Virus record (IMG/VR): IMGVR_UViG_2737471869_000021 | Location: 1-4,274 of that record | Source of the DNA: a virus | Taxonomy: Duplodnaviria > Heunggongvirae > Uroviricota > Caudoviricetes | Length of the DNA: 4,274 nucleotides | Reading direction: 5' to 3' (one strand) | Shown: positions 1 through 3,746 of the stretch, piece after piece | Position numbering within the stretch: the first letter of the stretch is position 1 | Layout of the letters: every line of letters starts with the position of its first letter | Made by a program: the position numbers and the translations under genes | The notes under the pieces: generated by a model | Told to the model about the DNA's origin: nothing | Database searches by the model: none | Seen by the model: the letters and a program-made list of their open reading frames with translations, nothing else

Positions 1-192
1 TCAGGAGCATTTCTGATTAACGCCACCGTTAAGAATCCACCCTTCAACAGCTTCACGAAGGTATGATTTGGGGTGGGTTCTGACTGGCTTCGGAAATCCG
101 TGTCGTTTGGTATAGTTCCAGATTGTCTGACGTGATGAAACACCGAGCTTGTTCATCACTTCTTTCTCAGGAATCAGGCTGGTATCGGTCAT
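1..192 (-). CDS. AlpA-family helix-turn-helix DNA-binding protein, putative prophage excisionase / regulator (63 aa)
   Basis: Complete ORF with ATG at 192..190 and TGA at 3..1. A GGAG Shine-Dalgarno sits 7 nt upstream (minus-strand 'ctGGAGaattaagATG'). The protein (MTDTSLIPEKEVMNKLGVSSRQTIWNYTKRHGFPKPV...EAVEGWIL) has the AlpA/Xis-like pattern of short HTH, 'FPKP' and a conserved W near the C-terminus. Its position at the distal end of the ea region matches the xis slot upstream of int in P22-like phages. Confidence 0.7.
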   Translation of the reverse strand: MTDTSLIPEKEVMNKLGVSSRQTIWNYTKRHGFPKPVRTHPKSYLREAVEGWILNGGVNQKCS

Positions 193-206
193 CTTAATTC
201 TCCAGG

Positions 207-230
207 CAAAAAGAAACCGCCATCAGGCGG
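207..230 (-). terminator. Putative intrinsic (rho-independent) terminator, minus strand
   Basis: Minus-strand RNA would form a GC-only stem CCGCC-UGAU-GGCGG (plus 217..230), extendable by A-U and G-U pairs, followed directly by UUUCUUUUUG (plus 216..207). It lies between the 55-aa ORF and the AlpA-like gene. The plus-strand orientation has no U-tract. Confidence 0.45.
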
Positions 231-390
231 CTTGGTGTTCTTTCAGTTCTTCAATTCGAATATTTGTTACGTCTGCATGCGCTATCTGCGCCCATATCAT
301 CCAGTGGTTATAGCAGTCGTTGATGTCCTCTGCTTCGATAACCCTGTCGAATGGCTCTCCATTCCATTCACCTGTGACTCGGAAGTGCAT
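223..390 (-). CDS. Hypothetical small protein (55 aa), below the ORF-track size cutoff
   Basis: Manual translation: ATG at 390..388, TGA at 225..223, giving MHFRVTGEWNGEPFDRVIEAEDINDCYNHWMIWAQIAHADVTNIRIEELKEHQAA. A GGAG Shine-Dalgarno sits 7 nt upstream ('tatGGAGatgataaATG'). The stop codon lies in the loop of the downstream terminator hairpin. The residue composition looks protein-like. I recognise no family. Confidence 0.4.
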   Translation of the reverse strand: MHFRVTGEWNGEPFDRVIEAEDINDCYNHWMIWAQIAHADVTNIRIEELKEHQAA

Positions 391-401
391 TTATCATCTC
401 C

Positions 402-428
402 ATAAAACAAAACTCGCCGTAGCGAGTT
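402..428 (-). terminator. Putative intrinsic terminator, minus strand, downstream of the DUF551 gene
   Basis: Perfect 7-bp stem AACTCGC / GCGAGTT with a 4-nt loop (plus 411..428). On the minus-strand transcript it is followed immediately by UUGUUUUAU (plus 410..402). The T-tract runs into the Shine-Dalgarno of the 55-aa ORF. Confidence 0.5.
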
Positions 429-490
429 CAGATAAAAGAAATCCCCGCGAGTGCGAGGATTGTTATTCACCTTTGACGGCAAGTTGCAGG

Positions 491-1084
491 TTAGCCACGG
501 TTAACCTCCTGAGGCGGTTCTGGTAGCGGCATCCAGTGGGTTACTCCATGCCATATACCAGTTGAGGTTTCAAACCTTGGCTCTCTGCCTTTCTGTGTCT
601 TGGCATATTCATTCCTTGTATATACGCATTGTCTAACTGCATATCCATTCCATCCAATAACTGTTTGTCTAATTTCTGGCATTCGCTCACTACAGCTTAT
701 CCAGCTATCCTTAATGCCACTATCTTGACTCTGAAGCATGGCGGCACGACAGGCGTTCCAGCCTCTCACCTCTGCAATAGCGGCAACAGCATCGACCGCG
801 TACATTTTAAGAGGGTTAGGCATTGGTTTTTCTTCAGGTACTACTGGAATGGGTGGGGCGGCGTAGACCTCAATAATTCCATTATCAATAGGCCATTCTC
901 CATCCTTGAGGTAGTCACTTGTGCCGTCAACTTGCTGTTCTGCAATGTGGAATGCACCTATTGGTTTTGCCTCAAGCGATGCCAGTGCAATTCGTGCCAG
1001 TTCCATTTGTTCGCCACGGGTAAGCCCGTTTTCAAGCGGGGATTTAATGAACAATTCGATACGTTCTTTAGTGATAGTGCTCAT
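491..1084 (-). CDS. DUF551-domain phage protein (197 aa from ATG 1084; the track's longer 224-aa form from 1165 is less likely)
   Basis: The C-terminus carries the DUF551 hallmark (...WISCSERMPE...GIWHGVTHWMPLPEPPQEVNRG). The preferred start MSTITKERIELFIK has a strong Shine-Dalgarno (minus 'AAAGGAGagtgatATG'). That start lies 1 nt after the upstream gene's TGA (1088..1086), so the two genes are coupled. The 1165 start would overlap the Ea22-like gene by about 80 nt out of frame. Confidence 0.7.
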   Translation of the reverse strand: MSTITKERIELFIKSPLENGLTRGEQMELARIALASLEAKPIGAFHIAEQQVDGTSDYLKDGEWPIDNGIIEVYAAPPIPVVPEEKPMPNPLKMYAVDAVAAIAEVRGWNACRAAMLQSQDSGIKDSWISCSERMPEIRQTVIGWNGYAVRQCVYTRNEYAKTQKGREPRFETSTGIWHGVTHWMPLPEPPQEVNRG

Positions 1085-1085
1085 A

Positions 1086-1784
1086 TCACTCTCCTTTGAT
1101 GCGAATGCCAGCGGCGCGTGGCACATTAACTTCCACGATGCGCACTGTTGGTTTGTACATCTCAATCGCTGTCAGCCAGTCAGCTCCTGCCATGCGCTTT
1201 TCCGCATCGCCATTAGTCCACTGAACCGGTACACCAATAGCCTTCATCGCGATTTCTATTTCCCCGGCAATGGCGCTTTTTCCGCAACCAGTAAAACCAG
1301 AAACAACGACAAGAACTTCGCCTTTGGCTGGTTTTATTTCCCGCGCTTCCAGTTTTGCTATGCGCTTCTCTGATGCTTCAAGTAACGCCTGCTTATCGCG
1401 TAGCGCTTCTTCCAGTTCAGCAACATGGCACTCACTATCAATAAGGTTGTTCTCTGCGGCTTCCAGCTCAACGCGCAACTTCCCTACCGTTAACGCAATC
1501 TCCTCGTTCTCCTGGTCGCGGCGTTTGATGTATTGCTGGTTTCTTTCCCGTTCATCCAGTAGCGCCTGCACTACTTCAGGGTTGAAAGCTGCGATATAAC
1601 GAGCGTTGTTCTCTGCGTTTTTCTGTCCATCAAAGCCGGTCCATTTGATAACGTCTTCACATCGTTTATCACCGGGCGTATGCACCGCATACGTACCAGT
1701 ACCAGACGAAATAAATGCGACCCATTCGCCCGGTGTTGCCTGTTTTGCTATCTCACGCAGTGCCTGATAATTAATTTCGCTCAC
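1086..1784 (-). CDS. ea22: Ead/Ea22-like family phage protein (232 aa), GTG start; central coiled coil and a C-terminal Walker-A-like motif
   Basis: An in-frame TAA lies immediately upstream of GTG 1784..1782, so this is the first possible start. It is preceded by a strong Shine-Dalgarno ('gcAAAGGAGGctgtaaGTG'). The N-terminus ([24 protein letters not shown]...AAFNPEVVQALLDE) matches my recollection of the Ead/Ea22-like N-terminal domain. The centre is a heptad-rich coiled coil (RERNQQYIKRRDQENEEIALTVGKLRVELEAAENNL...EEALRDKQALLEASEKRIAKLEA). The C-terminus contains VLVVVSGFTGCGKSAIAG. Confidence 0.7.
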   Translation of the reverse strand: MSEINYQALREIAKQATPGEWVAFISSGTGTYAVHTPGDKRCEDVIKWTGFDGQKNAENNARYIAAFNPEVVQALLDERERNQQYIKRRDQENEEIALTVGKLRVELEAAENNLIDSECHVAELEEALRDKQALLEASEKRIAKLEAREIKPAKGEVLVVVSGFTGCGKSAIAGEIEIAMKAIGVPVQWTNGDAEKRMAGADWLTAIEMYKPTVRIVEVNVPRAAGIRIKGE

Positions 1785-2266
1785 TTACAGCCTCCTTTGC
1801 GAAGCTCTGCAGCGAAATATACAGCTGCGGAAACAATAGCTGCATGTCGGCATTCACCATCAGAAAATAAAGAATCTCCCTTAAGTGCATTGACGATACT
1901 CTGATGATTTTTTGCCAGCATCTCAACCCCCTGCGCCCGGACTTCAGCCAGGAAAGCATCGGTGGCTGGGGTGTCTGATTGCAGAGACTTTGCGCGATAG
2001 TCATTCCACCCTCTTGCATACATGGGATTAACTCGCACTCCATCTTTTACGCAATATGCCTGACCTCCACGGTTGATAACCTTGATTTCGTCCATAGCGC
2101 CAGACTTCAGCCCCGCATTCTCCGCCGCCAGCGCCGCGCACTTGGCCTCCGCTTCAGCAAATTTACGCACCAGATATTCAGCGTTTGTTTCGTTAACCTT
2201 TAAATCACTTGGGATGCATTTACCTTTCAGAAAACCATCCATCTCAATTAGTGACATTAGTTTCAT
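1781..2266 (-). CDS. Hypothetical phage protein (161 aa), ea-region gene of unknown function
   Basis: ORF with ATG at 2266..2264 and a moderate Shine-Dalgarno (GGAG/GGGAAG upstream). Its TGA (1783..1781) overlaps the GTG start of the Ea22-like gene as GTGA. The protein ([16 protein letters not shown]...[35 protein letters not shown]...[19 protein letters not shown]...) has no family I can name. Confidence 0.6.
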
Positions 2267-2385
2267 TTCTTCCCACTCCGCAACATCGCATTCAGATATT
2301 TGTTTTGATTCACTGATGGAAAAGAATTTCTCTTAAGCAATTCCTCTCTCGATGGCATTGGCTTTACGCGTTGGCGAATAATCAT
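2263..2385 (-). CDS. Possible small ORF (40 aa) in the abc2-to-161-aa intergenic gap; weak
   Basis: Manual translation: ATG 2385..2383 gives [40 protein letters not shown], ending at TGA 2265..2263. That TGA overlaps the ATG of the 161-aa gene as ATGA. There is no convincing Shine-Dalgarno and several rare Arg codons. The ATGA overlap is the only real support. Confidence 0.2.
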
Positions 2386-2437
2386 TTCTGCCGGAAGAAT
2401 GCCGGGATTGTATGCAAGTCATCTCATGGTAAATTCC

Positions 2438-2734
2438 TCAGTCATTACTGATAGCGCCATAGCGTGAGCGGTAATTACGCAGGCGCGGGTCGATATATTC
2501 AGGGAATTTGTCTATTGTCGCTTTTCGCAACGGTCTCATTGCTGTTTCGTTTGTTCGGTCCTTCTCCTGTTTTAGCGCGAGTTGTATATCGCGTCGGTAC
2601 ATCCGTTCTGCTTTTGTTTCTGGTGTCAGAGCAAGAAACGCGTCGAAATTGTTTTTGATATTTTCCAGCACCTCCGCCTTGGAGCTACCGGAGCAATTGC
2701 GCGGGTCATCCGCACCATACAGAGGCGCTGGCAT
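2438..2734 (-). CDS. abc2: Probable anti-RecBCD protein Abc2-like (98 aa)
   Basis: Clean ORF with ATG 2734..2732 and a good Shine-Dalgarno ('AAGGAttccattATG'). The size is close to the roughly 97 aa I recall for P22 Abc2, and it lies downstream of erf in transcription order. The N-terminus MPAPLYGADDPR... matches what I recall of Abc2-family proteins. This is an assignment from memory and synteny, not a search. Confidence 0.5.
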   Translation of the reverse strand: MPAPLYGADDPRNCSGSSKAEVLENIKNNFDAFLALTPETKAERMYRRDIQLALKQEKDRTNETAMRPLRKATIDKFPEYIDPRLRNYRSRYGAISND

Positions 2735-2757
2735 AATGGAATCCTTATTTTGCTAAT

Positions 2758-3141
2758 TTAGAAGGGAATTGAATCGTCGTATTCAGGATGATTTTGATGA
2801 TTGCTACTTTGTTGCTGTTGGCTGTTTCCTGAAGTTGCAAATCCAATCTTTGCATTCAGTAATTCAAGAGTGATTGATTGACCATTTTGCCCCTGATAAA
2901 CATCAACCCTGATGTTTTCTCCGGTAATTTCTACAATTCCACCTTCAACAAGAACACTACGGTAGTAATCCGCTTGCGCTCCCGGCTTGGCAAATACAAC
3001 GGCGCTGTAGTTTGTCCATTCTTTCTTTTTTGTCTGGCGATCGTAATACTGAACGCCAGCACGGATGTTGAATCCGATATTTTCCCCGGCCTGAAACTCT
3101 CTTGCGGGCTTGTTTAGTCTTACAGTAATCGAATGTGCCAT
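2758..3141 (-). CDS. ssb: Phage single-stranded-DNA-binding (SSB-like) protein, minimal OB-fold with C-terminal acidic tip DDSIPF (127 aa)
   Basis: The protein ends ...SGNSQQQQSSNHQNHPEYDDSIPF, a Gln-rich linker plus a D-D-x-I-P-F tip like the C-terminus of bacterial SSB (...DDDIPF). The core (KEWTNYSAVVFAKPGAQADYYRSVLVEGGIVEITGENIRVDVYQGQNGQSITLE) resembles the SSB OB-fold segment ([32 protein letters not shown]...). Its ATG (3141..3139) overlaps the erf TAA (3143..3141) as TAATG. Confidence 0.7.
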   Translation of the reverse strand: MAHSITVRLNKPAREFQAGENIGFNIRAGVQYYDRQTKKKEWTNYSAVVFAKPGAQADYYRSVLVEGGIVEITGENIRVDVYQGQNGQSITLELLNAKIGFATSGNSQQQQSSNHQNHPEYDDSIPF

Positions 3142-3746
3142 TAAGCAGCCGCTCCTTCTAATTCATCTCGTCTGATGTTGTAAACGTCCTGCGCTTTGTG
3201 CTGCTCCGGTGTGCCTTCGAGCATCTTCCACGCTTTGGCGAACGCCTGTTTAAGCTCTTCCACGTTGTTTTTCTGCATTGCTGCGTCAGTGAATGCTTTT
3301 AGAACCTGTTCAGGTGTAGGTGATGGTTTTGATTGCTTTGCTGCTGCGTTCTGCTGATGTTTATGCTCGTCTGTATCTGCATCTTTCGCATCATCAATGC
3401 CGAATAAACCATTGAGGCAATACTTGCGTGCATAAGAGCTTGTAGCTCCCGTAACTTGTGCAGAATCCATTCCTTTCTTGCTTTCTTCCTCTCGTGCAAG
3501 AGCGGTTGCCGTATGACTGTTTTCGCCATCGGTAATAGTTGCCGTGGCTTTCACGTAATACCGATCACCAATCAACACAACTTCATCGCTGATTGATAAA
3601 AACAGGCCATTCAGTAACGGTTTAACACCTTCAAGAATATCTTCGCAGCTTCTGTATTTATATTTACCGAATGAGTTGTAATGATTTTTTGGCGCGTTCA
3701 GATTCTCCTGAATAGCTGCCAGTCTTGCGTAAAATTCTTTGCTCAT
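3141..3746 (-). CDS. erf: Erf-family single-strand annealing recombinase (201 aa from ATG 3746)
   Basis: The N-terminus MSKEFYARLAAIQENLNAPKNHYNSFGKYKYRSCEDILEGVKPLLNGLFLSISDEVVLIGDRYYVKATATITDGENSH... closely matches P22 Erf as I recall it. The track's 211-aa form begins at a TTG (3776) that adds MGHVHSENKH; the ATG at 3746 is the likelier start. Confidence 0.85.
   Translation of the reverse strand: MSKEFYARLAAIQENLNAPKNHYNSFGKYKYRSCEDILEGVKPLLNGLFLSISDEVVLIGDRYYVKATATITDGENSHTATALAREEESKKGMDSAQVTGATSSYARKYCLNGLFGIDDAKDADTDEHKHQQNAAAKQSKPSPTPEQVLKAFTDAAMQKNNVEELKQAFAKAWKMLEGTPEQHKAQDVYNIRRDELEGAAA

Follow-up and report, generated by a model that had tools for sequence, protein, structure and literature searches.

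A mosaic EaA-type DUF551 gene in the early leftward operon of a lambda-like Escherichia coli prophage

The gene at positions 491-1084 on the minus strand of the 4,274-nucleotide stretch of viral DNA analyzed here (the window) is an ordinary accessory gene of a lambda-like Escherichia coli prophage, already catalogued, whose product, as judged from DNA comparisons, has been put together by recombination from about five modules. The gene lies in the early leftward (PL) operon of a lambdoid prophage of the HK022/HK106/P22-like type, and the explanation of the whole that we hold, with slightly better than even confidence, is that of a mosaic accessory gene of this operon encoding a putative non-enzymatic binding or adaptor protein. 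Public databases already list this very protein under the same name, and both the family and the mosaicism of the region are already known: DUF551 has been recognized for a long time, and this part of lambda-like phage genomes is well known for its mosaic make-up. As a catalogued member of a long-known family, the gene in itself is of little weight. What has been gained is the resolution of an annotation ambiguity over start site and domain count, together with a view of near-invariant flanks around many unrelated domain cores, carried on interchangeable chassis, that makes function experimentally approachable.

The coding sequence, stop codon included, extends from an ATG at 1084-1082 to a stop codon at 491-493 and specifies an EaA-N/DUF551 protein of 197 amino acids (MSTITKE...THWMPLPEPPQEVNRG; by its ends, MSTITKERIELF...GVTHWMPLPEPPQEVNRG). 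An identical protein (P0001), with the same start called in four assemblies, is carried by 33 public contigs and is named 'DUF551 domain-containing protein [Escherichia coli]' by NCBI. At the DNA level, 80% or more of the gene was found in one place in none of 50,697 phage records and in none of 5,426 complete E. coli genomes, and pieces of it are present in 2039 of those 5426 genomes. DUF551 was the sole Pfam family matched by the whole protein; searches of NCBIfam and PADLOC were without match, and a PHROG search led to function-unknown families only. Sequence searches of the PDB with the protein, with a profile of the N-terminal module (A5) and with a DUF551 profile (A3) returned nothing credible, the best matches (CSF1R, the MMP-14 hemopexin domain, and LAMTOR1) having E values above 0.1 and being dismissed as chance. 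Since its reading frame, Pfam match, composition, and linker were all reproduced here, the description given in an earlier sequence-only reading of this DNA can be regarded as accurate; it was in the interpretation of the N-terminal region and of the number of domains that it needed revision.

Every gene of the window is on the minus strand. Their order begins with cIII/kil-like ORFs, erf (PF04404), an ssb-like gene (phrog_44), and the anti-RecBCD gene abc2 (PF11043), and continues with a DUF2737 gene, a 161-aa ORF, an Ead/Ea22-like gene, and the gene under study, after which come a 55-aa ORF (phrog_676) and an AlpA/Xis-like ORF. The gene directly upstream of the target matches the Pfam family Ead_Ea22 with E = 1.5e-39. 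Four contigs that carry the identical protein (L001-L004) display a complete lambdoid early region in which cII, cro, and cI are followed by cIII, kil, erf, abc2, Ea22, the target, and xis; a DUF2737 gene precedes Ea22 on the contigs bearing P0001, and on three of the four (L001-L003) an integrase gene and host sbcB come next. One contig bearing P0001 agrees with the window at 99.9% identity. Among phages, the window is matched best by HK106, HK022, and Stx-converting phages, each of which covers at most 69% of it. In the annotation of HK106, PL and N stand upstream of the homologous block. From this annotation and the contig gene order, the target can be placed among the accessory genes (the 'ea' or exo-xis block) of the early left operon; on L001-L004 and in HK106 the location falls between the recombination genes and xis/int, and the target itself sits between the Ead/Ea22-like gene on one side and a small orf55-like gene, xis, and int on the other. 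A scan for sigma-70 promoters over positions 1-1400 of the window found no site, so nothing points to independent expression in the lysogen. Two terminator-like hairpins just 3' of the stop codon (minus strand, 410-461, comprising 461-440 and 429-410) are consensus-scan matches only. Homology of the target to the neighboring 161-aa ORF was considered and set aside, the two sharing only a 13-residue RGWN..RA..LQS motif with a pairwise E of 0.003, which is too weak.

The frame is open on the minus strand from a TTG at 1165 to the stop codon at 491-493, and the arithmetic of the sequence-only reading, by which the choice between 1084 and 1165 changes the product by 27 residues (to 224 aa), was right; a third possible start in the same frame, ATG 1126, for a product 14 residues longer (211 aa), had been overlooked. 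By comparison of sequences, translation begins at ATG 1084, and the question is settled in this way without the proteomics that had been proposed for it. A ribosome-binding site, AAGGAG (1091-1096, minus strand), lies 6 nt before this ATG and is part of a recurring junction, AAAGGAGAGTGATATGA, that is also present in L001, L003, and L006, and in two copies in L010. The Ead/Ea22-like gene upstream has its stop codon (TGA; 1086-1088, minus strand) one base before the ATG, and this TGA-T-ATG layout suggests that translation of the target is probably coupled to termination in the preceding gene. The NCBI entry for P0001 uses the same start. That the real product is longer, beginning at TTG 1165 or ATG 1126, is scarcely credible. 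The open frame does reach 1165, and the equivalent upstream ATG is used by some automatic gene callers in relatives (P0011 and others), but the 27- and 14-residue extensions are DNA of the Ea22-like gene read in another frame and would impose an overlap of 42-80 nt with it. Moreover, the upstream ATG at -42 is absent from L006, and in L008, where the upstream gene is a different one, the product begins MTTFTKE and is preceded by an in-frame stop 15 nt upstream with no start codon between. Homologue alignments all begin at M[ST]T[IF]TKE, even where the upstream gene differs, and a strong ribosome-binding site is found before 1084 only. Both longer starts were rejected on the comparison of the L006 and L008 junctions.

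The N-terminal region had been regarded as uncharacterised; it is instead an EaA-type module, an assignment made because residues 1-80 match eaa of phage P22 (55% identity, E = 3e-16, tblastn) and because close relatives are named 'Eaa/EaA protein' in several sources. Phage vB_EcoM_TH18 is 78% identical over residues 27-77, and the module is recognized by the features MTTITKE..., RIALASLEA, and ...VYAAPP. The module is widespread: a scan of 1.84 billion representative proteins, with clusters defined at 50% identity, recovered it in 1059 clusters at E ≤0.001 and in 535 at E ≤1e-10. Its partners are DUF551, DUF550, Ead_Ea22, and many unnamed C-termini; among the best 147 of those representatives, 43 also contain DUF551, five contain DUF550 (dATP/dGTP pyrophosphohydrolase, PF04447), five contain Ead_Ea22, and the rest are without a Pfam domain. 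A stand-alone version of ~122 aa exists as well, and in L010 a separate DUF551 gene starts one base after it. No match to the N-terminal region was found in Pfam, NCBIfam, or PDB sequences, and a literature search on the function of phage EaA returned nothing relevant. The first 120 residues are acidic, as previously described, and mildly so (pI 4.73, 17 D+E versus 11 K+R, net charge about -6), and the proline-rich linker that had also been pointed out is present, with seven prolines among the 17 residues 75-91 (AAPPIPVVPEEKPMPNP; window 812-862).

Prediction of the domain structure, which had been recommended for this protein, succeeded for one part and failed for the whole. An AlphaFold2 (AF2) model of the full-length protein, built from a 47-sequence alignment of close relatives, was unusable, with a mean pLDDT of 51.5, values below 50 for residues 37-108, and values of 33-43 for residues 41-110; tentative helices at residues 6-14, 23-38, 98-107, and 109-119 were predicted with low confidence. 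Because the N-terminal 120 residues are not confidently modelled, the scaffold or oligomerisation roles considered for them below are guesses. The DUF551 domain modelled alone (residues 117-197, with 31 diverse sequences) was by comparison well behaved, yielding an all-beta structure with a pLDDT of 78.9 and a pTM of 0.66, of which the conserved flanks were the most confident parts.

A two-domain protein, as it had been proposed, is too simple a picture, since DNA breakpoints divide the gene into at least five exchangeable segments. In DNA comparisons these breakpoints are sharp and fall at gene nucleotides of approximately -39, 80, 350, 410, and 530. Sliding identity to L008 is 30-46% up to gene nt ~80, 93% at nt 81-110, and 100% from nt 111; identity to L010 is 100% from upstream through the start, 83-100% to nt ~350, and then ~30-45%; and identity to L006 is 83-100% to nt ~410, 23-43% over nt 411-530, and 66-73% over nt 531-590. 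The same picture was obtained at the protein level by BLASTP against 120 relatives, in which blocks are inherited independently: many relatives are 91-97% identical over residues 1-121, carry an insert of 60-100 residues, and are just 31-48% identical in DUF551, and others are 99% identical over residues 27-197 with a different head. The segments, all on the minus strand, can be described in order. Segment A (residues 1-26, MSTITKERIELFIKSPLENGLTRGEQ; 1007-1084) is a variable head, predicted with low confidence by AF2 to be helical and exchanged among relatives in alignments, for which at least 12 alternative versions are found ahead of the RIALASLEA junction and the breakpoint with L008 lies at gene nt ~80. 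Segment B (residues 27-74, ELARIALASLEAKPIGAFHIAEQQVDGTSDYLKDGEWPIDNGIIEVY; 863-1006) is the conserved core of the EaA-type module and is nearly invariant in alignments A1 and A5. The proline-rich linker (residues 75-92, AAPPIPVVPEEKPMPNPL; 809-862), delimited by sequence and composition, is followed by segment D (residues 93-120, KMYAVDAVAAIAEVRGWNACRAAMLQSQ; 725-808), a helical GWNACRAAML module according to AF2 and the alignments, of which at least four alternative versions exist, all ending in GWNACRAAML, and in which the breakpoint with L010 lies at gene nt ~350. The remaining exchanges concern the DUF551 domain itself.

The C-terminal DUF551 module that had been recognized by its motif is genuine: the Pfam profile PF04448 is matched over its full length (positions 1-68 of 68) by residues 127-192 (509-706, minus strand), with 58.6 bits (cut-off, 22) and E = 1.2e-15, well outside what chance would give. 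The terminal signatures of the family are present, W-I..SERMP at residues 128-136 and THWMPLPEPP at residues 182-191, and alignments A2 and A3 show little or no variation in either. When the lone-domain model was compared with BFVD by Foldseek, ten matches were obtained at E ≤0.001 (TMq 0.56-0.67), the named ones among them being DUF551 proteins from a variety of phages. Comparison with the PDB gave a best E of 0.4, TM values of 0.24-0.47, and 5-16% identity; Tudor/SH3-like barrels dominate this list, and none is significant. The matches include the UHRF1 tandem Tudor domain (5yy9), the PHF20 Tudor domain (3p8d), and 53BP1 (2g3r), which like the model are five-stranded all-beta domains of ~60 residues, but with E ≥0.4 and the TM and identity values just given the resemblance is one of fold only, and of a model. 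DUF551 may thus be a small all-beta barrel, with a Tudor/SH3-like resemblance that is weak and does not amount to membership. The domain is near neutral (pI 8.0, net +1). DUF551 occurs in about 38% of complete E. coli genomes, Shiga-toxin phages included.

The exchange of sequence within DUF551 follows a particular pattern. In relatives, the two flanks (DGWISCSERMP and VTHWMPLPEPP) are almost invariant, and the core of 33-64 residues between them is replaced wholesale. According to the relatives' alignments, the 5' flank of the present protein comprises residues 126-136 (DSWISCSERMP; 677-709, minus strand) and the 3' flank residues 181-191 (VTHWMPLPEPP; 512-544); the variable core cassette, residues 137-180 (545-676), was delimited by core comparisons and coincides with the stretch of low identity to L006. 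There are 15 core types among 263 proteins and at least 24 among 84 DNA loci of enteric phages. Average identity between cores of different types is 28%, against 27% for shuffled controls, and flank identity stands at 83-85%. At flank positions where two different cassette types agree in the amino acid, they also agree in the codon in 80% (5') and 64% (3') of comparisons, raw figures taken without a codon-usage null; this agreement suggests shared DNA ancestry of the flanks, or exchange at them. The cassette of the target is that of the C-terminus of HK106 gp32, an Ead_Ea22 protein, with 96% identity over residues 125-193, and gene nt 375-579 are found, at ~96% identity, in many Stx2a phages. 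These matches accord with the description of an Ea22 'V2' variant of Stx phages that carries DUF551 (PMC10834534). Conserved termini around variable cores are typical of the whole DUF551 family, distant phages included. Hypervariation of the DGR type was ruled out, the cassettes varying in length (33-64 aa) and being unrelated throughout; neither the window nor any inspected contig encodes a reverse transcriptase.

Co-occurrence of DUF551 with Ea22-like genes, which had been suggested as a check, is real and partial. Of 80 DUF551 ORFs on viral contigs, 72 had enough upstream sequence to be assessed, and for 35 of these 72 an Ea22-like N-terminal domain is encoded by the ORF itself or no more than 1.5 kb upstream of it; the association is frequent and not obligatory. 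An EaA-type N-terminal module is found on 49 of the 80. The target and HK106 gp32 (with Ea22 V2 of Stx phages) illustrate the two ways in which these parts are combined. The DUF551 cassette and the operon block are shared, but in HK106 gp32 and Ea22 V2 the domain is the C-terminal part of an Ea22 coiled-coil protein (PMC10834534), whereas at the present locus a separate upstream Ea22-like gene has a different C-terminus with a Walker-A-like motif, and DUF551 is borne on an EaA-type N-terminus; accordingly, the Ead_Ea22 domain (PF13935) is absent from the target in the Pfam search.

Comparison with other known systems is similarly a matter of parts. With P22 EaA and eaA of phage UAB_Phi20 the target shares the N-terminal module and a place in the 'ea' block between recombination genes and xis; unlike UAB_Phi20 eaA, which is annotated as a DUF550 (MazG-like) protein, it is without PF04447, a domain that is present in some of its relatives (e.g., P0009), and the segments past residue 80 differ. 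With YfdS of E. coli K-12 it shares the full-length HMM match, the terminal signatures, the predicted fold, and carriage by a prophage, whereas YfdS has another N-terminal part and belongs to another gene cluster (yfdQRST). Like lambda Ea22, Ea8.5, Orf60a, Orf61, Orf63, and Orf73, the target is encoded by an early accessory gene between the recombination functions and xis, but it has no sequence similarity to any of those proteins. The exo-xis genes of lambda are non-essential and sway the lysis-lysogeny decision (PMC7093339; PMC3824215).

The sequence-only reading gave the DUF551 family no established function, and we agree. YfdS is the only DUF551 protein with experiments to its name; it takes part, alongside YfdQ and YfdR, in inhibiting the initiation of replication, and cells that lack it are sensitive to H2O2, the data on YfdS being drawn from overexpression and the unrelated YfdT being able to replace it (PMC4776307). 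In the explanation that we narrowly favor, the protein would be produced within the first minutes after infection or induction, and DUF551 would act as an SH3/Tudor-like beta-barrel that touches a host or phage macromolecule. The EaA module could provide a scaffold, or a second surface for interaction or oligomerisation, with the flexible linker keeping the parts from one another. The effect would be to modulate host physiology or the balance between lysis and lysogeny, as other genes of the exo-xis region do, and the gene would be expected to be dispensable for plaque formation. A portable interaction module is argued for by the joining of DUF551 to many N-terminal partners, among them Ea22, MazG-like DUF550, EaA-N, and several short unrelated heads (cf. 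PMC10834534), and a modulator of host physiology fits the phenotypes of YfdS. Missing catalytic signatures may still be compatible with catalysis in a family that is without a characterised member.

Other functions can be proposed from the same observations. The replacement of cores that resemble one another no more than shuffled sequences, between flanks whose protein sequence and codons are largely retained, is what would be expected of a counter-defence effector in which the DUF551 core is a specificity cassette that blocks an immunity protein of the host or of a rival prophage and the flanks are recombination handles. The anti-RecBCD gene abc2, ~1.4 kb upstream in the same early operon, and the MazG-like dNTP pyrophosphohydrolase domains on relatives would suit such a role. 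We nevertheless consider it rather unlikely: a literature search found no tie between DUF551 and anti-defence, PADLOC gave no match (although its library is one of defence systems and not of anti-defence proteins), and core variability is family-wide and could reflect weak constraint on a tiny barrel. A more general form of this idea, in which DUF551 is a 'plug-in' recognition domain whose swapped interior retargets the protein to factors of the host or of rival phages, such as immunity proteins, is speculative and somewhat less probable again. On that reading the two invariant terminal strands would both hold the fold and serve as handles for homologous recombination, with EaA-N, Ea22, and MazG-like domains as interchangeable chassis, and, if true, DUF551 would constitute a recombination-driven counterpart of hypervariable binding scaffolds.

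The fusions of DUF551 to PF04447, which recur in P0009, P0240, P0255, and others, point in a different direction, toward a nucleotide-pool or replication accessory in which DUF551 directs or regulates dNTP-hydrolysing enzymes or inhibitors of replication initiation and the catalytic part is missing or supplied in trans. The annotation of eaA of the P22-like phage UAB_Phi20 as a DUF550 protein is in keeping with this, as is the nature of YfdR, the partner of YfdS, an HD-domain protein that binds DnaA (PMC4776307). It is distinctly improbable here, given that neither a DUF550 nor an HD domain is present in the protein or encoded elsewhere in the window, that PF04447 accompanies just five of the 147 best representatives of the N-terminal module, and that YfdS is dispensable when YfdT is present. 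Some SH3-like, Tudor-like, and KOW-like domains bind DNA or RNA, and the fold neighbors of the DUF551 model, together with the proximity of the recombination genes erf, the ssb-like gene, and abc2, would allow the barrel to be a nucleic-acid-binding regulator that tunes early phage transcription or recombination; DUF551 has also been reported together with helix-turn-helix proteins (PMC10834534). The near-neutral charge of the domain and the acidity of the N-terminal part speak against this, no known DNA- or RNA-binding family was matched, and we rate it as very unlikely. Finally, the extreme mosaicism, and the failure to find this exact combination in the phage records and complete E. coli genomes searched, might be taken to mean that the gene has no function, having arisen as a by-product of recombination in a hypervariable stretch and persisting by hitch-hiking only. 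There is hardly any room for this explanation, since the ORF is intact and identical on its 33 contigs, open frames, conserved junctions, and translational coupling are maintained in thousands of relatives, and distant phage groups retain the DUF551 signature. A binding or adaptor protein of the early operon remains the reading that we prefer.

Genes of the exo-xis region in Shiga-toxin phages affect prophage induction and hence toxin release, which gives the accessory genes of this block a wider relevance. The same set of parts is also met in other surroundings: on two contigs (L010 and L011), a block of Ea22, EaA-N, DUF551, and DUF4752 genes has a replication gene on one side and the gene for the small terminase on the other.

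A block of accessory genes of the ea type, comprising an Ea22-like gene, a free-standing N-terminal module of the P22 EaA type (EaA-N, 122 aa), a DUF551 protein gene and a DUF4752 gene, occupies positions 1837-3721 of two contigs that carry relatives of the 197-aa EaA-N/DUF551 protein (L010 and L011), where its neighbours are a DUF1064-bearing, lambda-P-like replication gene on one side and the small terminase gene on the other. This location lies outside the PL operon, so the whole block travels together from one genomic setting to another. Exchange also has material to act upon within the DUF551 domain: one viral contig (L068, 2512-2900) carries two tandem DUF551 ORFs with unrelated cores and complete E. 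coli genomes each hold up to seven places that match the query, which together are ample substrate for cassette exchange.

The junction AAAGGAGAGTGATATGA, in which a ribosome-binding site, a stop codon, a single base and a start codon follow one another, is found at window 1082-1097 and twice in L010 (2485-2503 and 2855-2873). This conserved sequence reappears at the boundaries of different pairs of ea-block genes, and the mosaic breakpoint at about nucleotide -39 of the DUF551 gene falls at the same place. The junction looks like a recombination linker joining modules. A smaller unit also seems to be common among ea-region proteins, namely a short helical motif that serves as a building block; a 13-residue stretch (1976-2014, minus strand) inside the 161-aa ORF (1781-2266), for which Pfam gave no match, is similar to the RGWNACRAAMLQS helix in the DUF551 protein (pairwise E = 0.003).

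The adjacent Ea22-like protein (1086-1784) consists of an Ead_Ea22 domain, a coiled coil and a C-terminal part of about 80 residues carrying a Walker-A-like motif, GFTGCGKS (residues 163-170; window 1275-1298, minus strand). Its NCBIfam matches to small kinases are weak and sub-threshold, and its C-terminus is unlike those of lambda Ea22 and the DUF551-bearing Ea22 of HK106.

Three terminator-like hairpins lie on the minus strand (214-233 and 410-461), two separating the DUF551 gene from the 55-aa ORF and the third where the latter ends, ahead of xis; they may be N-antiterminated tL-type terminators. Across window 1-1400 there are six terminator-like sites; the expected number is 1.3.

Between erf and abc2 (2758-3141, minus strand), a gene encodes a 127-aa HK97 gp40-like protein that matches the PHROG single-strand DNA-binding protein family (E = 1.8e-28); no Pfam family was matched, and its score for NCBIfam SSB was under the cut-off. 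The DUF2737 gene, flanked by abc2 and the 161-aa ORF, begins ATG AGA TGA (2419-2427, minus strand), with a nonsense codon at codon 3, as against ATG AGA GGA (MRGLAYNPG...) in a 99.9% identical contig (L001), and is probably either inactivated or restarted at an internal ATG (2385) to give 40 aa. One otherwise similar prophage (L003) has an IS605-family OrfB/TnpB (Cas12f-like) gene (3400-4491) inserted upstream of erf in the early left operon.
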